64,000 nucleotides of DNA from Thermoanaerobaculia bacterium (GTDB lineage: Bacteria > Acidobacteriota > Thermoanaerobaculia > Multivoradales > UBA5704). The stretch is taken from the NCBI GenBank assembly GCA_035536455.1, contig DATLOC010000053.1, positions 61,095 through 125,094 of the forward strand. Direction: 5' to 3'. The position numbers and the translations under genes were made by a program. Of the stretch, positions 23,231 through 52,898 are shown one piece after another; position 1 is the stretch's first letter, and each line of letters begins with the position of its first letter. The notes under the pieces were generated by a model that saw only the letters and a list, made by a program, of their open reading frames with translations, did no database searches and was not told the DNA's origin.

Positions 23231-24177
23231 CGAACGCCGATCCTACCCGGACCGCCTGCCGGCCGCGCCTGCAGCACCGTCGTCCCCGCCAGCCGGTCGT
23301 GCAGCGCCAGGCGCTCGGGGCCCAGCGCCATCCAGAAGCCGGCGCCGAGCGGCAGCGCCGAGAGCGCGTAGCCGGCGAGGCGGAGGAGGGCGCGGCCGAC
23401 CGAGAGGCCGGCGCGGCCGTCCGGGCCGTGCACGGTCAAGCCGAGGAGGCGCTTGCCCGGCGTCGTCCCCCAGAGGCACCAGCCGGCGAGCGGCACGAAG
23501 AGGGCGAGGAGGCCGGCGAGGACCCAGGCCAGGAGCCGGCCGCGCGGCGTGAACGGGCCCCCGAGCGGCAGGGCGAGGACCGACGCGCCGGCGACCACCG
23601 CCACGGCGTCGAGCGCGAAGGCGCCCGCCCGCGCCCAGAACTCGGCGGGCACGAGCTCCACCGGCACGGCAGGCGCCGGCGTGGGCGGTGCGGCCGCCGG
23701 CGCGGGCGGCGGCGCGGCCGGCGGCGGCGTCCTGTCGAGAGCCGGTACGTGCCAGGGCGCCGGCGAGGCGATCCCCGGCGGCGAGGTCAGGTCGCCGGAG
23801 GTCGAGGAGGCGGCGGCCAGCTCCTCGGGCGTGGGGACGGGCACGACCCGCGACGGCCGGCGGCCGTCGTCGCGGGCGAAGCGGAGGAAGGCCTGCGTCT
23901 CCCCCACCGTCAGCCGGTCCCCCTCGGCCATCGGCGTCTCGGCCTCGACGCGCTGGCCGTTCAGATAGGTGCCGTTGCTCGAGCGCAGGTCCTGGACGGT
24001 CACCCGGTCGCCGCGCACCCAGACCAGCGCGTGGCCGCGCGACACCGCCGGGTCCTTGACCACGACGCCGCAGCCGCGGCTGCGGCCGAGGGTCGTCTCC
24101 CCCTCGCGCAGCTCCACCCGCCGACCCTGGATCTCCAGCACCCAGGCGCCGCGGCCGGCGCGGCTGCCGCCGGTCAC
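23227..24177 (-). CDS. FHA-domain protein fused to an RDD-family membrane domain
   Basis: FHA core: TLGRSRGCGVVVKDPAVSRGHALV...VQDLRSSNGTYLNGQRV. A Pro/Ala linker follows. The C-terminal RDD-like TM region reads FWARAGAFALDAVAVV...GTTPGKRLLGL...LHDRLAGT. The GTG start overlaps the uvrA-like stop (GTGA). Confidence 0.8.
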   Translation of the reverse strand: MTGGSRAGRGAWVLEIQGRRVELREGETTLGRSRGCGVVVKDPAVSRGHALVWVRGDRVTVQDLRSSNGTYLNGQRVEAETPMAEGDRLTVGETQAFLRFARDDGRRPSRVVPVPTPEELAAASSTSGDLTSPPGIASPAPWHVPALDRTPPPAAPPPAPAAAPPTPAPAVPVELVPAEFWARAGAFALDAVAVVAGASVLALPLGGPFTPRGRLLAWVLAGLLALFVPLAGWCLWGTTPGKRLLGLTVHGPDGRAGLSVGRALLRLAGYALSALPLGAGFWMALGPERLALHDRLAGTTVLQARPAGGPGRIGVR

Positions 24178-27068
24178 GAGGCGGCGCCGGCGGCCAGCTC
24201 CTCCATCTCCAGCTCCTCCGCCGCCGGCCAGCGGAGGTGGCGGCGGAGCTCGCGGGCGGTGGGGCTGTCCGCCTGCTCCAGGAAGGGCTCGAGCGGGCCG
24301 GAGTAGAGGAGCTCGCCGCCGTGGGCGCCGCCCCCCGGCCCGAGGTCCACGATCCAGTCGGCGCGGGCGATCAGGTCCGGGCTGTGCTCGACGACGACGA
24401 CGCCGTCGCCGCGCTGCACCAGGCGGCGCAGCATCTGGTAGAGGAGGTCGATGTCGGCCAGGTGCAGGCCGGTCGTCGGCTCGTCGAAGAGGAAGAGCCG
24501 CCGCCCCTCACCCTTGGGCCGGTCGAGGAAGCTCGCCAGCTTGAGCCGCTGCGCTTCGCCGCCGGAGAGGGTCGAGGTGGGCTGCCCGAGCCGCAGGTAG
24601 CCGAGCCCGACGTCGGCGAGGAGGCTCAGCCGGCGCCGCAGGCGGCGCTGGTCGGCGAAGGCGACGATGGCCGTCTCGACGGTCAGGTCGAGGGTCTCGG
24701 CGATGGTGCGGCCGCGGAAGCGCACCGCCAGCACCTCGGGGCGGAAGCGGCGCCCCTGGCACTGGTCGCAGGGTACGGTCACCGGCGCCATGAACTGCAT
24801 GTCCACCTCGGTGACGCCGGTGCCCTGGCACCCTGGGCAGCGGCCGCGGTCGAGGTTGAAGGAGAAGTGCGCGGCGGTGATGCCGCGGGCGCGGGCATCG
24901 GGCAGGCCGGCGTAGAGCTTGCGCAGCTCGTCGTAGGCCTTGATGTAGGTGATCGGGTTGGAGCGGCTGGAGCGCCCGAGCGGCCGCTGGTCGACGAGCG
25001 TCACGTCGGCCAGCTCGTCGAGCCCGAGGAGGGCGTCGCAGTCGCCGGGGTCCACGTCCACGACGCCGCGCGCCCGGTGGTAGGTGCCGTAAAGGACGTT
25101 CTCGACCAGCGTCGACTTGCCCGAGCCGGAGACGCCGGTCACCGCCACCAGCGCCCCGAGCGGGAACTCGACGTCGATGCCGCGCAGGTTGTGGGCGCGG
25201 GCGCCGCGCACCGCGACCCGCGGCAGGCCCGACAGCTCCTCGACCAGCGACTCCCAGCCGTTCTCGCGCCGGAAGCGGGCCATGTGCCGGCGCGCCGGCG
25301 TCGGCGGGCGTTCCTTGAGATACCGCCCGGTGAGCGAGCGCTCGCAGGCGAGGATCGCCGAAAGGGGCCCCTCGGCCACCACCTCGCCGCCGCGCTCCCC
25401 CGCCTGCGGCCCCAGGTCGATGACGTGGTCGGCGCCGCGGATGAGCGTGCGGTCGTGCTCGACGACCAGCACGGTGTTGCCGCGCGCCGCGAGGTCGCGG
25501 AGGAGATGCAGGAGCCGCTCGCTGTCCTGGGCGTGGAGGCCGATCGTCGGCTCGTCGAGGACGTAGAGGGTGCTGGTGAGGCCGCCGCCGAGAGCCGCCG
25601 CCAGATGGATGCGCTGGGTCTCGCCGCCCGAGAGCGTCCGCGCCTGGCGGTCGAGCGTCAGGTAGTCGAGGCCGACGCGGTGCAGCACCTCGACGCGCTC
25701 GGAGAGCTCGTCGAGGAGGTGGCCGGCGACCTCGCGCTCGCGCGGCGTCCAGCGCACCGTGCGCAGCCAGACGCGCAGGTCCTCGACCGAGAGGGCGGCC
25801 AGCTCTGGCAGCGTCCGGCCCTTGAGGCGCACCGCCGTCGCCTCGGCCTTCAAGCGCGTGCCGCCGCACCCCGGGCACTGGGTGTAGGAGCGGTAGCGCG
25901 CGAGCAGCACGCGCACGTGGACCTTGTAGGTGCGGTTCTCCAGCCACTGGAAGAAGCCGGTCAGGTTGACGAACTTGCCGGCGCCGCTCCACACCCACTC
26001 CTGCGTCGCGGCCGGGAGATCGGCCCAGGGAACGTCGAGCGGCACCCGCTTGCGCCGGCAGGCGGCGTAGAGCTCGTCGTACAGCTCCTCGTAGGCGGGC
26101 GTGTTCCAGGGCGCGATCGGGCGCTCGCGCAGCGTCCGGCGCGGGTCGGGGACCACGCGCTCGCGGTCGATGCCGATGACCCGCCCGAAGCCCTGGCAGA
26201 CCGTGCAGGCGCCGAGCGGCGAGTTGAAGGAGAAGAGGGCGGGGGTGGGGCGGCGGAGCGGCTCGCCGCAGACGCCGCAGGCGAGCTCGCGGGCGTAGAG
26301 CCGGACGCCCAGCGGCCCGCGCGCTTCCGCCCGCCCGCCGGCCATGCGGTAGGCCTCCTCCAGTGTCGCCGCCAGGCGGGCCGAGGCGTCCTCCCCGTCC
26401 GCTCCCGCGCGGAAGCGGCCGAGCACCAGCGGCAGCGGATCGAGCTTGGCCGCCCAGGGCTCCCCCGGCTCCATGCGCCGCGCCTCGTCGCCGTCGAGGC
26501 GCCGCGCGAACCCCTGCCGGATCAGCTCGGCGAGGGCGGCGTCGGCTTGGCGGCGCGGGCGGGGCAGGCGCACGACGACGAGGAAGGGGTCGCCGACGGC
26601 GCCGGCGGCAAGCTCCGCCGCGGCCTCTTCGACGGTGACGGCGCGCGCCGGGCCGTGCCCGTGCGGGCAGACGACCTCCCCCAAATGGGTGAAGAGGAGC
26701 CGGAGGACGTCCTGCGTCTCGGTGATCGTGCCCACCGTCGAGCGGGCGTTGCGCACCGCGTTGCGCGCCTCCAGCGCCACCGCCGGCAGCACGTTGTCGA
26801 TCGCATCGACGGGCGGCCGCTCCATCTGGTCGAGGAACTGTCGCGCATAGGTGGACATCGACTCGACGAACCGCCGCTGCCCCTCGGCGAAGACGGTGTC
26901 GAAGGCGAGCGAGGACTTGCCGGCGCCGGACGGGCCGGTGACGACCGTCACCGCCCGGTGCGGGATGCGGCAGTCGATCCCTTTGAGGTTGTGCGTGCGG
27001 GCGCGGCGGACCAGGATGGCGGGGCTCTGCGGCATCTTTGGCGGCCCCGCCCCGGACGCGCCGGCCAA
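24174..27068 (-). CDS. uvrA: UvrA-family ABC ATPase (excinuclease ABC subunit A or a divergent paralog)
   Basis: Walker [11 protein letters not shown] and [10 protein letters not shown]. Signatures [12 protein letters not shown] and [12 protein letters not shown]. Walker [13 protein letters not shown] and [12 protein letters not shown]. Zn modules CGVC..CTVCQG, CPGCGG, CPGCQG..CDQCQG. It diverges from canonical UvrA in the signature domain ([23 protein letters not shown] instead of PAISIDQK). An alternative ATG lies at 27035. Confidence 0.8.
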
Positions 27069-27995: not shown

Positions 27996-28583
27996 TCAGT
28001 CGTCGTGGCCGCACCCCCGGTGGTGGCGGTGGTGGCCGCGGCCGCGCTTGCCGCGGTGCTTGCCGCCGTGACGGTCGTCGTCGCGGTCGTAGCGGCCGCG
28101 GCGGTCACGGCGGTCGTAGCGATCGTCATAGCGGTCGCGGCCGTAGCGGTCGTCGCGGCCGCGACGGTCGTACCGGTCGTCGTAACGACCGTACCGATCG
28201 TCGTAGCAGTCGCGGCCGTAGCCGTCGTAGCCGGCGAAGCGGGGCGCGTAGCGGTCGAACGCCCAGTAGGGGTCCACGTCGTAGCTGCGGAAGTGGGCGC
28301 CGACGAGCGGGCAGGACTCGTGGTGGTAGTAGCGGCCCGCGTCGTGGAAGCAGGAGCGGCTGCACTGGTGGCCGCGGTAGCGGATCGGCCGGTCGTAGCG
28401 GTAGTAGTAGGCGGGTTGGGAGGCGAAGCTCGGTCTGCCGAAGACGAACGAGATGTGCGCGGCGCCGACCCGGAAACCGGCGCCGACCGCGAGCCAATCG
28501 TGGTAGGCCCGCGCCTCGGGGACGAGACCTGGAGCGAACAGCGTCGCCCCGACCAGGACTCCGGCCACAAGCAACTTGCGCAT
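27996..28583 (-). CDS. secreted protein with Cys/His core and extreme Arg/Tyr/Asp-rich, His-rich C-terminal tail
   Basis: Strong SD (AAGGAGG) 9 nt upstream of ATG 28583. Signal peptide MRKLLVAGVLVGATLFAPGLVPEARA. Tail: DDRYGRYDDRYDRRGRDDRYGRDRYDDRYDRRDRRGRYDRDDDRHGGKHRGKRGRGHHRHHRGCGHDD. Confidence 0.65.
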   Translation of the reverse strand: MRKLLVAGVLVGATLFAPGLVPEARAYHDWLAVGAGFRVGAAHISFVFGRPSFASQPAYYYRYDRPIRYRGHQCSRSCFHDAGRYYHHESCPLVGAHFRSYDVDPYWAFDRYAPRFAGYDGYGRDCYDDRYGRYDDRYDRRGRDDRYGRDRYDDRYDRRDRRGRYDRDDDRHGGKHRGKRGRGHHRHHRGCGHDD

Positions 28584-28700: not shown

Positions 28701-28742
28701 GAGGGAGCCGCCTCGAGGGGTCGGGCGCGGTAGGCTTCGGAC

Positions 28743-29120
28743 ATGGAGGACAAGGACCTGGGGAGGGCGCTGGAGGTGCTGCGGATCGCCCGCGGCTGGA
28801 CGCAGGACGAGCTGAGCCGCGCGGCGGAGATGCGCGGCAGCTCGATCTCCAGGTACGAGAGCGGCAAGGAGCTGCCGGACGCCGACGCCGTGCGGCGGCT
28901 CGTCGCCGCGCTGGGCTTCGCGCCCGACGCCGTGGAGCGGACGCGGCGGTTCCTGGCCGGGCTGCGCGGGGAGAAAGAGGCGAGTGAGAAAGGCGGAGCG
29001 TCTGAGGCCGAAGCGCCTTCGGCACAGCCGGGCGAGGCGGAACGGCTCGAAGCGGAGATCGACGGCGTCGTCTCCGACCTCGGCCGGGTCCTCCGCGAGC
29101 TCGCGCGCCGCCCCGTTTAG
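28743..29120 (+). CDS. XRE-family helix-turn-helix transcriptional regulator
   Basis: HTH_3 pattern LRIARGWTQDELSRAAEMRGSSISRYESGKELPDADAVRRLVAALG, followed by a low-complexity acidic C-half. The last 20 nt including the stop codon belong to the tandem array. Confidence 0.8.
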   Translation: MEDKDLGRALEVLRIARGWTQDELSRAAEMRGSSISRYESGKELPDADAVRRLVAALGFAPDAVERTRRFLAGLRGEKEASEKGGASEAEAPSAQPGEAERLEAEIDGVVSDLGRVLRELARRPV

Positions 29121-29500
29121 CTCCCGGACGCGCCGTGACCGTCCCGGGCGCCCCGTTTCCGTTGTGGGCGCCCGATTTCCATCGCGGGCGCCCCGTTTCC
29201 TTCGTGGGCGCCCAAGATCCGTCGCGGGCGGCCGATTTCCGTCGCGGGCGCCCCATTTCCCTTCCGGGCGCCCCATCTTCGTCGCGGGCGCCGGATTTCC
29301 GTCCCGGGCGCCCCGTTTTCATTACGGGCGGCCAACTTTCCTCCCGGACGCCCGATCTCCGTGGTCGCCCGCCGATCTCCGTCGCGGGCGCTCCGTGAAC
29401 GTGCCGGGCGCTCGGTTGCCGTCGCCGGCGCGCCGCGACCGTCGCGGGCGCCCCGGGATCCTCCCGGGAGCGCGGCGACCGTCACGGGCCGTTCCGTCAG
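29101..29500. repeat. tandem array of about 20 units of exactly 20 bp, consensus about GTCGCGGGCGCCCCGTTTCC
   Basis: Units start at 29101, 29121, 29141 ... 29481 with no indel. Examples: gtcccgggcgccccgtttcc (29141), atcgcgggcgccccgtttcc (29181), gtcgcgggcgccccatttcc (29241), gtcgcgggcgccggatttcc (29281). Units degrade toward both ends. Confidence 0.9.
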
Positions 29501-30045
29501 CCCACCCGATCCCAGAAGGGCGGGTAGCGCACGACGAGGTCCGCGTCGTCGACCTCGATCTCGGTCGAGAAGCCGGTGGCGCTCTCGTAGCGGAGGCGGC
29601 GGGCGTCGAGCCGGGTGTAGATCTGCGCGAGGAGCTTGACCTCGAGGCTCGGGAAGAGGACCCAGGCGGCGGTGACCTCGCGGCTCTCGCCGGGCGCGAG
29701 CGGGAGGCGGCGGAGCGGCAGGGTGTTGGTGGCCGGGGTGAGGCTGAGGTCCACGTCGAGGCAGCCGGCGACCGCCGGCAGCTCCTCGCCGCCCGCCCGC
29801 CACCGCCCCTCGCCATCGGCGTCGAGCTCCAGCTGCCGCGCCTCCCCGCCGTGCGCCATGAGGACCCGCACCCGCCGCGTCCGCCAGCTAGCGTCACACT
29901 CGATCTCGTACTCGACGTGCAGCGGTGTCCCCTCGTGCGCCAGGAGGATGGTGCCGGCGAGCCGCGGCCCGTCCGGTCCTTCGACCAGCCGGAAGTGCTC
30001 AAGCCCGGGGACGTCCAGCCGCCGCCAGAGAAAAGTGACGCTCAG
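29497..30045 (-). CDS. putative glycolipid-binding domain protein (PF06475/DUF1089-like)
   Basis: FLWRRLDVPGLEHFRL...YEIECDASWRTRRVRV...CLDVDLSLTPATNTLPLRRLPL...AAWVLFPSLEV...YTRLDARRLRYES...YPPFWDRV matches the family pattern as I recall it. There is no ATG/GTG/TTG near the family N-terminus. I provisionally placed the start at CTG 30045, which overlaps the PBP1A stop (CTGA). Confidence 0.65.
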   Translation of the reverse strand: MSVTFLWRRLDVPGLEHFRLVEGPDGPRLAGTILLAHEGTPLHVEYEIECDASWRTRRVRVLMAHGGEARQLELDADGEGRWRAGGEELPAVAGCLDVDLSLTPATNTLPLRRLPLAPGESREVTAAWVLFPSLEVKLLAQIYTRLDARRLRYESATGFSTEIEVDDADLVVRYPPFWDRVG

Positions 30046-32525
30046 CGCCCGCCGTCCTCCGGCGGCTCCTCGTCGCCGCGCTCCTCGTCCTCGCCGCGCT
30101 CCTCGTCGTCCTCGTCGTCGCCGAAGACTTTCTTCAGCCAGCGCCGGATCGGGTGGCGGCGCTCGGCGCGCTCGCCGCGTTGGGCCGGCGCCACCGCGTC
30201 CTCGATCGCCTCGCCGGCGTCGTCGAAGACCGCCCACTCCTCCGTCCAGCCGCGGTGGCGGTCGCAGACCTGGTCGGGGACGTCGCCTTCGCGGAAGACC
30301 TCGGTCAGCACGTAGGGGCAGAACTCGGTGGCCAGGAGGCCGGTCGTCGGGTCGATGACGGCGGTGGAAACCCCCGGCGGCTGGTCGAAGGCCGGGTAGC
30401 CGCCGGCCGGCGCCACCGCCTTGGCGAAGCGCGCCCAGACCGGCACCGCGCCGCGCGCGCCGGAGAGGCGGGTCGGCGAGTTGTCGTCGTAGCCGACCCA
30501 GACGGCGGAGGCGCGGTTGGGCGAGTAGCCGACGAACCAGCTGTCGCGGCGGTCGTTGGTGGTGCCGGTCTTGCCGGCCACCTCGCCGCGCACCCCCCAG
30601 GAGCGGACGCCGCGGCCGGTGCCGCGGTCCACGACGCCCTGGAGGATCGAGGTCAGGAGGTAGGCCGTCTGCGGCGTCAGCACCCGCGCGTGCTGCGGCA
30701 ACTCCGTGCCGGTCACCGGCTTGCTATAGCGGTCGTAGACGGCCGCGAGACCGTGTACCGGCGGGCGCACGCCGCCGGCCGCGAGGGTCGCGAAGACGGT
30801 CACCAGCTCGAGCGGCGTCACCTCGGCCGCGCCCAGCGCCACCGACGGGTTGGGCGCCAGCTCCCCCTCGACGCCGAGGTAGTTGGCGTAGTCGACGATC
30901 CGCTCGATCCCCACCTGCAGCGCCAGCCGCGCCGTCGCCGGGTTGTAGCTCCGCTCGAGCGCCGTGCGCACGGTCACCCAGTCGTGGAAGCTGCCGTCGT
31001 CGTTCTTCGGCCGCCAGGGGCGGCCGGCGAGGCGCACGGTGAGCGGCGAGTCCTCCAAGAAGGAAGCCGGCGTAGCGTGCCCGGTCTCGAAGGCCGCGGC
31101 GTAGACGATCGGCTTGAAGGCGCTGCCGGCCTGGCGCTCGGCGCGGCCGGCGCGGTCGAACTGGCTGGCGCCGTACTGCCGGCCGCCGACGTAGGCGAGG
31201 ATGCCGCCGGTGCGCGGGTCGAGCGAGACCAGCGCCGCCTGCAGCGGCCCCGTCGCCTTGCTCCGCCGCTCGTAGGCCTTCTCGACCGCCGCCAGGCCCT
31301 CCTCGACCGCCTCCTGCGCCGCCCGCTGGTCGCTCCAGCCGAGGGTCGAGAAGAGGGTGAAGCCGGCGTCCTCCAGCGACTCGACGCCGTAGCGGCGCTC
31401 GGCCTCGGCGGCCATGGCGTCGGCGAAATAGGGGGCGCGGCGGCGGAAGACCGGCGAGGGGTCGACGGCCAGCGGCTCGGCGAGCGCCCGCTCGACGCGC
31501 TGCCCGTCCACCCGGCCGAGCGCCGCCAGGCGGTGCAGCACCCAGTCGCGCCGCGCCTTGGCGCGCTCGGGGTGGTGGAGCGGCGAGTAGGGCGCGGGGG
31601 CGCGGATGACGCCGGCCAGCGTCGCCGCCTCGTGCAGCGCGAGCTGCGAGGCGTCCTTGCCGAAGAAGGCGCGCGAGGCGGCGCCGACGCCGATCAGGTT
31701 GACGCCGCCGGCCGACCCCAGGTAGATCTCGTTGAGGTACGCCTCGAGGATCGCCCGCTTGCCGTAGCGCAGCTCGAGGAGGAGCGCCAGCACCAGCTCC
31801 TGCCCCTTGCGCACGAAGGTCCGCTCCTGGGTCAGGTAGAGGTTCTTGACCAGCTGCTGGGTCAGCGTGCTGCCGCCCTGCCGCACCTCGCCGCCGCGGT
31901 AGTTCACCCAGGCGGCGCGCGCGATGCCGGAGAGCGAGACGCCGGGGTGGCGGAAGAAGCTGTCGTCCTCGGCCGCCAGGACCGCCTCGATCAGGTCTTC
32001 GGGGACGGCGTCCACCACGACCGGCCGCCGCTCCTGGTGATCGCTGCCGTAGTAAGTGTGGAGGAGCGGCGGCTCGAGCCAGGCGGCCTCGACCGCGGCG
32101 CCGTCCTTCGCCACCTTGGTCACCCGGCTACCGCGGAAGCCGACCTCGAGGAGGCCGCCGCCCGCGGCGCCTTCCGGCGTCACGAACTCGCGCAGGTGGA
32201 CGGCCAGGCCGTTGCGGTAGGGGCGGTAGCGGCCGCCGAGCAGCGGCTCGGTCGTGTCGTCCTTCTGGTAGCCGTCGGCGGCGAGCTCGCGGATCAGCCG
32301 GTCGCGCGACAGCGCCCGGCCCTCGTAGAGGCGCACCGGCGCGGCGTAGAGACGGGAGGGCTGGAGGTAGGTGAGGTCGTCGAACTGGCCGGAGAGGCGC
32401 CAGAACGGCCAGATGACGAAACCCGCGAGCAGCGCGAAGCCGGCCAGGACGAGGAGCAGCCGGCGGGCCCGCCGGCGCCGGTCCTCCGGGGCCGGACGGC
32501 CTGCGTACTGCGGTTTGCGGGTCAT
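30042..32525 (-). CDS. mrcA: penicillin-binding protein 1A (bifunctional glycosyltransferase/transpeptidase)
   Basis: N-terminal TM anchor. GT51 motif RQGGSTLTQQLVKNLYL. Transpeptidase SxxK (GSAFKP) and KTG (AGKTGTTND). Acidic Glu/Asp-rich C-terminal tail. Confidence 0.92.
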   Translation of the reverse strand: MTRKPQYAGRPAPEDRRRRARRLLLVLAGFALLAGFVIWPFWRLSGQFDDLTYLQPSRLYAAPVRLYEGRALSRDRLIRELAADGYQKDDTTEPLLGGRYRPYRNGLAVHLREFVTPEGAAGGGLLEVGFRGSRVTKVAKDGAAVEAAWLEPPLLHTYYGSDHQERRPVVVDAVPEDLIEAVLAAEDDSFFRHPGVSLSGIARAAWVNYRGGEVRQGGSTLTQQLVKNLYLTQERTFVRKGQELVLALLLELRYGKRAILEAYLNEIYLGSAGGVNLIGVGAASRAFFGKDASQLALHEAATLAGVIRAPAPYSPLHHPERAKARRDWVLHRLAALGRVDGQRVERALAEPLAVDPSPVFRRRAPYFADAMAAEAERRYGVESLEDAGFTLFSTLGWSDQRAAQEAVEEGLAAVEKAYERRSKATGPLQAALVSLDPRTGGILAYVGGRQYGASQFDRAGRAERQAGSAFKPIVYAAAFETGHATPASFLEDSPLTVRLAGRPWRPKNDDGSFHDWVTVRTALERSYNPATARLALQVGIERIVDYANYLGVEGELAPNPSVALGAAEVTPLELVTVFATLAAGGVRPPVHGLAAVYDRYSKPVTGTELPQHARVLTPQTAYLLTSILQGVVDRGTGRGVRSWGVRGEVAGKTGTTNDRRDSWFVGYSPNRASAVWVGYDDNSPTRLSGARGAVPVWARFAKAVAPAGGYPAFDQPPGVSTAVIDPTTGLLATEFCPYVLTEVFREGDVPDQVCDRHRGWTEEWAVFDDAGEAIEDAVAPAQRGERAERRHPIRRWLKKVFGDDEDDEERGEDEERGDEEPPEDGGR

Positions 32526-51095: not shown

Positions 51096-51485
51096 CTATG
51101 CCAGCTCGCGCTTGATGCGCTCCACTAAGCCGCGGGCCGCTGCGATCTCTTCGCGCGCGCCGGCATCGTCGACGACGAACGCCCGGGCGTAGTCGGCTTC
51201 CTCGCGGAACTTCTGCAGCCGCGCCAGCAACCGCGAGGTGGCGGGATCGTAGACCCCGGGCTTCACGAGGTGCGCGTTCCACAGGTGCTGGACCCCGCCG
51301 TGGCTCCGCGGCTCGAGCCCGTCGGCGTAGAGCCGGGCGCGTACCGCGTGGAAGACGGCGAAGTAAGCGCGCGCGAGGGCGATGCGAGGGTGGCCCAGCT
51401 CCAGGAGATGATCGGCGACCCGCAGCTCCTCGTCGGCGAGCTCGAGCTCCGCCGCCGCCGCGTTGCGGCGGCCCTCGGCGGTCAG
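51096..51485 (-). CDS. HEPN-domain protein (toxin partner of the nucleotidyltransferase)
   Basis: AELELADEELRVADHLLELGHPRIALARAYFAVFHAVRARLYADGLEPRSHGGV...FREEADY shows the HEPN layout, including the R-x4-6-H-like RSHGG. There is no ATG/GTG/TTG near the domain start. I provisionally placed the start at CTG 51485, overlapping the upstream stop (CTGA). The ORF-track start at 51644 would overlap the upstream gene by 160 nt. Confidence 0.7.
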   Translation of the reverse strand: MTAEGRRNAAAAELELADEELRVADHLLELGHPRIALARAYFAVFHAVRARLYADGLEPRSHGGVQHLWNAHLVKPGVYDPATSRLLARLQKFREEADYARAFVVDDAGAREEIAAARGLVERIKRELA

Positions 51486-51838
51486 AGCGGGATCCCCTCG
51501 CGCTCTATATCCACGAGCAGCGGGCGCTCCTGGGCGCGCCAGAGAGCGTAGGTTTCGCGATCGAAGATGGCGGGAGAGAGGCGCAGGTCCAAGGGGAGAC
51601 CGACGTCCGTGGCGAGGTCGATCACGTCCCGCTGCGTCGTCCAATCAACGCGTTCCAGCACGACCGCCACGTCGACATCGGAGTCCTCGTCGGCTTCGCC
51701 GCGCGCGAACGAGCCGAAGAGGCGCACCTCGACGACGGCGTCGCCGAGCCGCCGGCGGAGCTCCTGAGCGAAGCGGGCGGCGGCGGTATACGCGAGTGGC
51801 GCGACGGCGACCTTGGGCTCGGCCATGGGACGGGCCAT
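51482..51838 (-). CDS. minimal nucleotidyltransferase (MNT-type antitoxin)
   Basis: LFGSFARGEADEDSDVDVAVV is the GS-x10-DxD nucleotidyltransferase motif. 118 aa. Confidence 0.85.
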   Translation of the reverse strand: MARPMAEPKVAVAPLAYTAAARFAQELRRRLGDAVVEVRLFGSFARGEADEDSDVDVAVVLERVDWTTQRDVIDLATDVGLPLDLRLSPAIFDRETYALWRAQERPLLVDIEREGIPL

Positions 51839-51887: not shown

Positions 51888-52265
51888 GGGGATTAAGGGT
51901 GCGACGCTCCGCGACGCCCGCCGAGCGGCGGCCAATGGCCTGCGGGAGGCGCGGAACTCCTTGCGGCGGCTTCGGAACCCTTTCCCGGAGCGTGGGAATG
52001 GGTTGCGCGGGCCGGGGAATGGGTTGCGGAGCGCCGGGAACCCTTTCCGAGCGCCTCGGAATAGGTTCCGCAGCGCGCGCAACCCATTCCCGGCGTCGCG
52101 CAATCGATTCCCGGCGCCGCGCAGGAGGTTCCGTCGGGCGCGCAGGAGGTTCCGAGGTCCCGGGAAGACATTGGGAGGCTCCACCGGGGCGTCTGAAGGT
52201 CGCGCGGGGACATTCCGGGGCTTCCGGCGGGCGTTACGCCAGGCGCGCAGGATCTCGGCCGGCAC
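51888..52265. repeat. tandem array of about 18 units of 21 bp related to the 29101-29500 array, with unit orientation switching in the middle
   Basis: 21-bp register: 51993 tgggaatgggttgcgcgggcc; 52014 ggggaatgggttgcggagcgc; 52035 cgggaaccctttccgagcgcc; 52056 tcggaataggttccgcagcgc; 52077 gcgcaacccattcccggcgtc; 52098 gcgcaatcgattcccggcgcc; 52119 and 52140 gcgcaggaggttcc.... GGGAATGGGTTGCG (left) is the exact reverse complement of CGCAACCCATTCCC (right). Confidence 0.85.
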
Positions 52266-52298: not shown

Positions 52299-52898
52299 CT
52301 ACTCGCTTCGCCGGCGCGACTTGCCCTTTTCGCCTTCCAGCTCGATGCCGCGCTTGCCGAGGAGCTTCTTGAGGCGGGCGTAGATGTTCTCGCCGAGGAG
52401 GGAGTTGGCGGTGGTCGTCAGGTCGCGCAGCACGGTGCGCAGCTCCTCGGAGCCGCTCCAGTGGCGGCGGGCGTAGTTCTCCAGCTCGCCGCCGAAGGCC
52501 TGGGAGAGGACGGCCGCGGCGAGGACCAGGTCCTCCAGATAGCCGGCGCCGCCGATCAGCGCTTCGGGGAGGAGGTCGGTCGGCAGGATGAAGTACGCGA
52601 TGGCGCCGCCGATCAGCGCGCGCGTCGGCCCCGGGACGTCCTTGTCGAGGGCCAGCCGCACCAGCAGCATGAAGACGTCGGGGACGAGGAGGAGCGCCTT
52701 GAGCGCCTTGCCCGAGAGCTTCCCGCCCTTGCTCTCGGCGGTCGTGACCACCCGGCCGCGCAGCCGGTCGTAGAAGGAGAGGAGGCCGGTCGAGCGCAGC
52801 TCGCTCTCGAGCTCGGCGCCGCCGCGGACGAGCGCCGTCTCCGAGCGCTCCTCCGCCGCCGCGATCTCCACGTCAGGGTCCTTCGTCAGGTTGGCCAT
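52299..52898 (-). CDS. DUF1232 (YkvA-like) membrane protein
   Basis: AIAYFILPTDLLPEALIGGAGYLEDLVLAAAVL matches the Y..xP.DliPd..p..GyxDD pattern of DUF1232. Confidence 0.7.
   Translation of the reverse strand: MANLTKDPDVEIAAAEERSETALVRGGAELESELRSTGLLSFYDRLRGRVVTTAESKGGKLSGKALKALLLVPDVFMLLVRLALDKDVPGPTRALIGGAIAYFILPTDLLPEALIGGAGYLEDLVLAAAVLSQAFGGELENYARRHWSGSEELRTVLRDLTTTANSLLGENIYARLKKLLGKRGIELEGEKGKSRRRSE

Follow-up and report, generated by a model that had tools for sequence, protein, structure and literature searches.

The 64,000-nt stretch of DNA from a Thermoanaerobaculia bacterium that was analyzed here (contig DATLOC010000053.1; hereafter, the window) contains a head-to-tail series of 20-bp repeats at the end of a gene for a small XRE-family helix-turn-helix (HTH) protein. 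The question raised by this locus is what a strictly phased tandem array does directly behind such a gene on a bacterial chromosome: is it part of a protein, part of an RNA, a passive minisatellite, or a set of sites on the DNA for a protein, and, if the last, for which protein? We find that the array and the XRE gene are one conserved two-part chromosomal module, that the array is consistently linked to no other gene, and that its period, phase and core are constrained. We propose that the array may be a DNA landing pad bound by the XRE protein, a reading to which we give a probability of about 0.45.

The array and its gene

The XRE gene lies at 28743..29120 on the plus strand and encodes a protein of 125 residues, with Pfam matches to HTH_31, HTH_3 and HTH_19. 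From 29101 to 29500, the sequence printed in a 20-nt register resolves into 20 units, each of exactly 20 nt and without an indel. The consensus unit is GTCGCGGGCGCCCCGTTTCC, and single units agree with it at 10 to 19 of 20 positions, with a peak at 29141-29320 and lower values at both ends. Tandem Repeats Finder (TRF) called a repeat at 29109-29455 with a period of 20, 17.4 copies and 69% matches, and autocorrelation gave self-identities of 0.65, 0.67, 0.66 and 0.63 at lags of 20, 40, 60 and 80, with about 0.3 at the remaining lags. The array has the top periodicity among all 400-nt segments of the 64 kb, 0.67 versus a background of 0.395 ± 0.026. The strict 20-bp phasing, the roughly 20 units and the decay toward both ends that the original prediction had described are thus confirmed by the register print, TRF and autocorrelation alike. 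The count of eight units with a perfect 8-bp palindrome, made in the same place, is also exact: GGGCGCCC is present in eight units, seven of them in the central block at 29141..29320 and the eighth in the unit at 29441. The motif GGGCGCCCNNTTTCC, with one mismatch or none, occurs seven times, every time inside the array, versus 0.2 occurrences expected. All of the sites point in one orientation, in the window and in its relatives.

As had been noted, the array spans the whole gap between the XRE gene and the convergent downstream gene, which matches Glycolipid_bind (PF06475, E=4e-57; 29497..30045, minus strand), bounds the array, and lies outside the conserved module. The layout of the array is as follows, with loci of relatives designated by L numbers and the window locus by W. 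The first unit after the stop codon, CTCCCGGACGCGCCGTGACC (29121..29140, +), is degenerate, and all lineages have a comparably degenerate unit at this place, directly behind the stop codon. It is followed by a central block (29141..29320, +) of nine well-kept GTCGCGGGCGCCCCGTTTCC-type units, which have 14-19/20 identity and the best nhmmer scores, and by a distal block (29321..29496, +) of nine more divergent units with GTGAAC, GCGACC or GGGATC tails. The distal units resemble the unit type of distant relatives, GGGCGCTCCGGGAC, and are one-for-one orthologous with those of L005, L023 and L024. Near the end of the array, a GC-rich hairpin or palindrome, CCCGGGA-TCC-TCCCGGG (29452..29468), can be read from the sequence and appears in the predicted folds of both strands. 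It is kept in L005 and L023 and not in L024; it has no U-tract, and a terminator scan was empty at the site. Lying between convergent genes, it might act as a stem in both directions.

The last 20 nt of the XRE open reading frame, including its TAG (29101..29120, +), form a weak in-register unit that matches the consensus at 11 of 20 positions and encodes the family-wide ...ARRxx C-terminus. The counterpart in L023 matches the consensus at 8 of 20. The C-terminus, ...LRELARR.., is kept in homologues that have different array units. This conservation beside differing units means that the C-terminus is not a product of the array, and the proposal that the array supplies the stop codon and sets the C-terminus of the regulator is not supported.

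Several other identities for the array were considered. A protein-coding repeat was rejected, as the self-identity at lag 60 (0.66) is not above that at lags 20 and 40 and there is thus no 60-nt boost, and as stop codons, one or two each, are found in five of the six frames across 29101-29500; the earlier remark that all frames are open was therefore inexact. In relatives, the indels in the array are of 20 nt and the net change is 19 nt, which also argues against a conserved coding frame. The alternative of a conserved coding repeat of 20 amino acids (60 nt), which the original prediction had raised against its own reading, is rejected by the lags, the indels and the stop codons together. A CRISPR array was rejected, the units being contiguous and without spacers. 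An assembly artefact is excluded because identical arrays are found in independent assemblies (JGI and ENA; NCBI and Logan), and the array is taken to be real.

Conservation of the gene and the array

The lineages with a readable 3′ flank are W, L005, L023, L024, L025/26, L027, L028, L029/30, L031/32, L033, L035 and L036, with W and its close relative L005 counted as one lineage in a total of 11. In all 11, a strict 20-bp array begins directly at the XRE stop codon, with 4 to 21 units per array and with protein identities to the window XRE that go down to 45%. Nineteen units follow the stop codon in W and L005 (in addition to the weak unit in the gene end), 20 in L023, and 19 in L024. The more distant loci have about 11 units in L025/26 (unit GCAGATGGGCGCTCCGGGAC), at least 9 in L027 (unit CGAAACGGGCGCTCCCGAAC), about 10 in L029/30 (unit GATCCGGGCGCTCCCCGACC; 45% protein identity), about 10 in L031/32, about 9 in L033, and 4 in L035. 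The contigs of L028 and L036 end inside the array. The metagenome contigs of L027, L028 and L036 all stop within the 20-bp array; short-read assemblies tend to break there, and copy numbers from such contigs are therefore minimum values. An outgroup protein of 179 residues with a different architecture (P0019/L034) has no array.

The genes around the module differ between clades. In the window clade the order is UvrA2, DUF5666, a repeat protein, XRE, the array, the convergent Glycolipid_bind gene and PBP1A. In other clades it is T2SSE, in some cases MscS, in some cases an AbiEii pair, XRE, the array, in some cases a co-directional phd/PIN or Pol-beta/HepT pair, and TyrRS. The XRE gene is the sole constant partner of the array across these contexts. 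The link to the adjacent HTH gene, which the original prediction had named as the obvious candidate, is therefore strongly supported: each readable member of the XRE family has a 20-bp array from its stop codon, whatever lies downstream.

In relatives, the module is bordered by varied toxin-antitoxin (TA) pairs, AbiEii with a small partner upstream and phd/PIN or Pol-beta/HepT downstream. These lie at 584-823 and 1559-2181 in L025, 5184-5806 in L029, 3694-4493 and 5221-6034 in L031, 3801-4624 in L033, and 61-887 in L036. TA genes seem to insert repeatedly at the borders of the module, as at a hotspot.

The XRE family is narrow. Among 5.8 billion proteins, there were 11 matches to the single query and 22 to a profile, and among 1.84 billion cluster representatives, 13 clusters at E<=1e-30, with multi-HTH proteins in several of these. 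Look-ups of the exact window XRE and PBP1A proteins matched no record. Viral contigs gave no XRE relative with a C-terminal match and no array, and tblastn of XRE against 72,556 plasmids gave generic HTH-domain matches only. The family is found in Acidobacteriota/Thermoanaerobaculia, and its hosts are soil Acidobacteria of one group; of the named relatives, the most distant is the Thermoanaerobaculia metagenome-assembled genome (MAG) L029, GCA_036277075.1.

The array was also sought independently of the gene. A two-unit pattern was scanned over 185,579 species genomes, one per species, a set that apparently lacks the window's own genome. The scan found one true relative, the orthologous locus L005, in an Acidobacteriota MAG with a complete 5.46-Mb chromosome (OY969474.1); the other 14 hits were single chance matches. 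The same pattern scanned over metagenomes gave one further orthologous locus, L023, and seven chance hits. At this stringency, there is no second array locus in the complete L005 chromosome, and no further copy was found in the window or in the flanks that were read. The single true relative in the species scan argues against a dispersed repeat family, a candidate that was rejected, as neither the pattern scan nor the family profile gave further loci.

Alignment of the consensus units on their shared part separates what is conserved from what is free to vary. A core of 8-9 bp, GGGCGC(C/T)C(C), is present in every lineage, and the remaining ~11 nt are lineage-specific. The period is 20 in all lineages, and the first core lies at a fixed distance from the stop codon, with a 1-nt shift in two lineages. 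The perfect 8-bp palindrome is lost in all of the distant arrays (GGGCGCTC).

It had been suggested that nearly every unit carries a T-rich patch, and that static curvature might follow from it. Intrinsically curved DNA, in which A/T patches every two helical turns bend the DNA and thereby organize the nucleoid or position a nearby promoter, would account for a short A/T patch per unit in GC-rich DNA, and such a patch is found as TTTCC in the window clade and as GAAAC in L027, L031, L033, L035 and L036. However, lineages do not agree on the sequence of the patch, on its strand or on where it lies relative to the core, and L025 (CAGAT) and L029 (GATCC) have a weak patch or none. The T-rich patch itself is confined to the window clade and, within the window, is found in about 9-10 of the 20 units, with TTT in only about half. 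Runs of three A/T bend DNA weakly, and the conserved part of the unit is the GC core, not the A/T patch. We therefore consider curvature very improbable, and the T-patch observation does not hold as first worded.

How the array changes over time was read from the closest loci, with the UvrA-like gene (24174-27068) as a reference for synteny and divergence. Counting the weak unit in the gene end, the window clade has 20 units in W, 20 in L005, 20 in L024 and 21 in L023. The units of W, L023 and L024 pair one-for-one, with one to three whole-unit indels per comparison and no homogenization within the clade. Sub-unit indels inside the array were found in no comparison; the lone 1-bp difference, in L005 and L023, falls in the degenerate unit that ends the array next to the stop codon of the downstream gene. 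Other intergenic DNA in the same genome pairs has 20-30% gap columns. At orthologous positions, core positions 6-13 take 35 of 145 substitutions versus 58 expected (binomial p=4e-5), a rate about half that of the flank positions. The W and L005 arrays have diverged by 4.0%, less than third codon positions (~9%; Fisher p=0.002) or other intergenic DNA (9-24%). For W and L024, divergence is 4-7% in the flanking genes as a whole and ~10% at their third positions, but it reaches 33% in XRE codons 78-125, 21-26% in the array, and 22.5% at the third positions of Glycolipid_bind. Purifying selection on the whole array was rejected, as it is supported for W and L005 and not for W and L024, where there is a local divergence hotspot. 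Since the W-L024 comparison leaves the array near neutral outside the core and the phase, constraint is claimed here for period, phase and core only.

The hotspot extends over ~28975-30100 of the window and 10230-11350 of L024, amid otherwise very similar genomes. It points to recombination over this tract or to a higher mutation rate associated with the repeat.

These data bear directly on the possibility that the array is a functionless minisatellite: a slippage-prone 20-bp repeat that arose from the 3′ end of the gene, has been maintained by rounds of expansion and contraction, and is passed on with the gene. Whole-unit gains and losses do occur, units are homogenized within distant lineages, copy number goes from 4 to 21, the flank positions change at about the neutral rate between W and L024, and several metagenome contigs break in the array, all of which speak for such a repeat. 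Yet an array of the same period, phase and core is kept in 11 of 11 lineages down to 45% protein identity, core substitutions are depleted, and the units are one-for-one and free of internal sub-unit indels where neighboring intergenic DNA is rich in indels. W and L005 have equal numbers of units and arrays that are 96% identical. A functionless repeat is thus distinctly improbable, and the suggestion of a hypervariable minisatellite is not supported, given the orthologous units, the 20/20/20/21 copies in the clade and the depleted core. The suggestion of an iteron- or centromere-like protein-binding array, in contrast, agrees with the conserved core, the strict period and phase, and the depletion of core substitutions.

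How the array may work

The invariant asymmetric core, the free flanks, the rigid period, the common orientation and the linkage to an HTH gene are best explained by phased protein-binding sites, and the XRE protein is the most economical candidate for the binder. An AlphaFold2 (AF2) model of the XRE protein (pLDDT 80) has a five-helix XRE domain with a long helix 5, a disordered linker at residues 78-97, and a 25-residue C-terminal helix at residues 98-122. The nearest folds are those of ClgR and of restriction-modification (R-M) controller proteins, the best PDB matches being ClgR, C.BclI and C.AhdI. Residues R14, R17, W19, R31, E39 and G41 are among those invariant in the family, as are the block RRLVAAMGFxPDAVER and, in the C-terminal helix, LxRxLRxLAR. 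In the model, the HTH domain, the disordered linker and the conserved C-terminal helix would suit oligomerization on repeated sites.

We propose that the array acts at the DNA level as a landing pad with multiple sites for a sequence-specific protein, for which the XRE protein encoded alongside is the best candidate. Each asymmetric core would be read by one HTH domain, and the flexible linker and C-terminal helix would join adjacent protomers, with the strict 20-bp spacing allowing polymerization into one nucleoprotein filament of 80-400 bp that would spiral gently around the DNA. Twenty bp is about 1.9 turns of B-DNA; it follows that successive sites are rotated by about -34 degrees and that such a filament would spiral once per ~10-11 units. 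The complex might act locally, as an insulator or a roadblock where the gene ends; it might take up free regulator and so buffer it by titration; or it might be a chromosomal landmark. That the array acts as DNA, that XRE is the binder, and what the complex does are what we infer from the observed linkage and constraint. The persistence of the XRE-array linkage when the neighboring genes change supports the proposal.

Several points weigh against it. The start of the recognition helix varies by clade (SSISRY, HWVGEY, RAVAQF, RLVGQY, GWMADY, AWLADH) while the DNA core is constant, and identical GAAAC...GGGCGCTCC units are paired with different recognition helices. There is, therefore, no covariation between protein and DNA, and we regard binding of XRE to the array as plausible despite the varying helix. 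XRE proteins usually bind palindromes as dimers, and the 8-bp palindrome is not conserved beyond the window clade. No conserved copy of the core, as autoregulation might use, is found upstream of the XRE gene, in its promoter region. No regulon is visible, and the core is not enriched elsewhere in the 64-kb window, with 11 and 6 copies on the two strands versus ~9.4 expected. As noted above, the divergence of the array between W and L024 (21-26%) is about that of the third positions of the adjacent gene (22.5%), which is near neutral outside the core and the phase. Finally, a DNA site would have no need to begin exactly at the stop codon, a feature that could hint at an RNA role.

The constancy of the core beside a variable recognition helix may instead point to a different binder. 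The array would then be a platform for a non-XRE protein, such as a nucleoid-associated or a replication or segregation factor, for instance, as a polar fork barrier of same-orientation asymmetric sites like those of Tus-Ter or RTP-Ter, with the neighboring gene linked historically or as a regulator. The common orientation of the sites and the presence of only one such array in the related complete 5.46-Mb chromosome (by pattern scan) agree with this proposal, and genes for fork-arrest proteins adjoin their Ter sites. It is quite unlikely, however, that another protein is the binder: no other gene is consistently linked to the array, the strict co-occurrence with one narrow XRE family would be left unexplained, and the GC skew in the window has no clean switch.

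The start of the array at the stop codon brings up the expression of the XRE gene. A putative -10 element, TAGGCT (28731..28736, +), inferred from the sequence alone, lies 6 nt before the ATG. The element TAG(G/T)(C/G)T is found 6-8 nt before the start in 9 of the 11 lineages checked (W, L024, L025, L027, L028, L031, L033, L035 and L036), and is kept despite the differing upstream genes. L023 has TAATCT at the equivalent position, and L029, in which XRE begins 4 nt after the T2SSE gene, has none. A longer conserved form, GCGGTAG(G/T)(C/G)T, is seen at 28725-28745 of the window, 870-894 of L025, 565-591 of L027, 4540-4563 of L031 and 1340-1362 of L035. In two lineages the start codon is GTG at the equal position. 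No Shine-Dalgarno sequence is found upstream of the XRE start, and a generic sigma-70 scan gave no promoter at the gene. This arrangement suggests that the XRE mRNA may be leaderless or near-leaderless and driven by the -10 box.

At the RNA level, the array would be the 3′ untranslated region (UTR) of a probably leaderless mRNA, and it might act as repetitive structured RNA: a 3′ stabilizer, a zone of factor-independent or Rho-modulating termination, or a sponge for an RNA-binding factor. Such a role would fit an array that, in every lineage, starts exactly at the stop codon and keeps the same distance from there to its first core. It would also fit the lack of a terminator between the array and the XRE gene; the promoter and terminator scan was empty over the whole of 29101-29500, although GC hairpins without a U-tract exist in the array. 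As read from the sequence, the core GGGCGCUC is self-complementary as RNA through G.U pairs, on the sense strand only, and the first two units make a long hairpin after the stop codon in L025 (by predicted fold) and in L027 and L031 (by inspection). This post-stop hairpin is, however, absent in L028, L029 and L033. Predicted folds are moderately more stable than shuffled sequences on either strand, with z from -2.0 to -4.6, yet the favored strand differs between lineages (W, -3.5 on the plus strand and -2.0 on the minus strand; L025, -2.4 and -4.6), and there is no consistent or common structure. Rfam 15 gave no match in the array even at E<=10, and none at gathering score anywhere in the window. 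In addition, what is conserved, a short asymmetric core between free flanks at a fixed period, looks more like a set of protein sites on DNA than like RNA helices kept by compensatory changes. We hold an RNA-level role to be unlikely.

A further step from the landing pad bound by XRE is possible, if doubtful: the gene and its phased landing pad might together be a self-contained unit on the chromosome and a nucleoprotein landmark of a new class in Thermoanaerobaculia-like Acidobacteriota. A leaderless-expressed HTH/coiled-coil protein would polymerize on 4-21 same-orientation sites, 20 bp apart, into a polar superstructure, working without a partition ATPase or a Rep protein. Such a structure could be a barrier to replication forks or transcription, an insulator by the TA insertion hotspot, or an anchoring point.

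Other features of the window and known systems

The original prediction had also pointed, 22 kb away, to an array of 21-bp units that it took to be related. There is indeed such a tandem array, at ~51960-52170, but kinship with the 20-bp array is not borne out: it escapes the three-unit profile of the 20-bp family, has only GGAGCGCC-like words in common with that family, and is built differently. Its halves are inverted, with 35-nt arms that are 83% complementary, and the minus-strand RNA would form one long imperfect hairpin (z = -7). It sits between a DUF1232 gene (52299-52898, minus strand) and an MNT/HEPN TA pair (51482-51838 and 51096-51479, minus strand), the MNT gene of which is not orthologous to the Pol-beta gene that follows the L031 array.

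Upstream of XRE, a gene on the minus strand (27996-28583) encodes a secreted protein of 195 residues with no Pfam match, conserved in L023 and L024, the C-terminal half of which consists of RYDDRYDRR-type repeats (28077-28233; 9/27-nt periodicity by TRF). The UvrA-like ABC ATPase, of 964 residues (24174-27068, minus strand), is 98% identical to its L024 counterpart, which carries UvrA_DNA-bind, and lies in a block with FHA-RDD, MauE, thioredoxin and LuxC/LuxE-like genes.

Known arrays of protein-binding sites offer a scale on which to place the XRE module. The sopC centromere of the F plasmid consists of 12 direct repeats of 43 bp that are bound by SopB (PMC3177203), and ParR of plasmid pSK41 binds the 20-bp repeats of parC to form a superhelical segrosome (PMC9426499, PMC3074162). 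Like these partition centromeres, the XRE array has head-to-tail in-register repeats with a short conserved core, and it adjoins the gene of a small DNA-binding protein, in 11 of 11 lineages. Its unit of 20 bp is that of pSK41 parC, and its copy number (4-21) is in the range of that of sopC. The spiral filament proposed above would resemble ParR on the pSK41 repeats, and the layout of gene, then array, recalls sopB-sopC. Unlike partition centromeres, the XRE-array loci have no ParA, ParM or TubZ motor gene; no such gene, and no Rep gene, was found by Pfam among the neighbors in the window, L024, L025, L029, L031 and L033. The protein has an XRE/Cro-C1 five-helix fold rather than a ParB-HTH, ribbon-helix-helix or TubR fold. 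Furthermore, the array is chromosomal and syntenic, plasmids having given only HTH matches in the tblastn search, its core is asymmetric rather than an inverted repeat in most lineages, and it lies 3′ of the gene, from the stop codon.

The iterons of theta-replicating plasmids are 17-22 bp direct repeats bound by Rep initiators, and they also serve in control by titration and “handcuffing”. The XRE array is like them in unit length, which falls within 17-22 bp, in direct orientation, in helical phasing, and in adjacency to the gene of its presumed binder. Unlike iterons, it has more copies than usual and is chromosomal, and its locus lacks a Rep-type winged-helix initiator, an AT-rich unwinding element and DnaA boxes. 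The GC content of the array region is 73-76%, with no AT-rich stretch, and its neighbors are XRE, Glycolipid_bind, PBP1A and UvrA2. The module would work most like plasmid centromeres or iterons, yet it lacks the motor or initiator, the fold and the context by which either is recognized.

Other systems are more distant. In the fork barriers of E. coli (tus/TerB) and B. subtilis (rtp/TerI-II), the gene of the terminator protein lies beside its sites. The XRE locus likewise has a small DNA-binding protein gene directly beside asymmetric, orientation-specific sites, but Ter sites are single or paired where the XRE array has 4-21 in tandem, and the protein folds differ. In type III TA systems, ToxI consists of 5.5 repeats of 36 nt upstream of toxN. 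The XRE array is similarly a tandem non-coding repeat tightly tied to one gene, with TA genes as common neighbors in relatives. However, ToxI units are of ~34-40 nt and lie upstream of an endoRNase gene (ToxN, CptN or TenpN), whereas the XRE units are of 20 nt and lie downstream of an HTH gene; the gene 3′ of the XRE array is convergent in the window and variable elsewhere, in type II TA pairs with their own operator. Minisatellites of the variable-number tandem repeat (VNTR) or MIRU type are tandem intergenic repeats that change by gain and loss of whole units, as does the XRE array. Unlike VNTRs, it is non-polymorphic between close relatives, is retained with one gene family, and is conserved in core and phase.

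A literature search found no paper describing an XRE-array module, and the gene and its array look like an undescribed module of a protein and its binding sites. It would belong with the protein-binding tandem arrays that are paired with the gene for their presumed binder. If XRE assembles on its own 3′ array, the module would be to the chromosome, in minimal form, what centromere or iteron complexes are to plasmids, and it would have neither motor nor initiator. It would represent an unrecognized use of phased protein-DNA filaments in a poorly studied phylum, for insulation, fork or transcription arrest, dosage buffering, or anchoring of a locus. The module is compact (~0.5-0.8 kb) and sequence-defined, and it comes as a natural series of 4 to 21 sites with several unit variants; it is directly testable in vitro and is a potential orthogonal array for DNA tagging. 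Even if its function is modest, it is a clear case of a minisatellite-like repeat that is conserved in period, phase and core across deep divergence.

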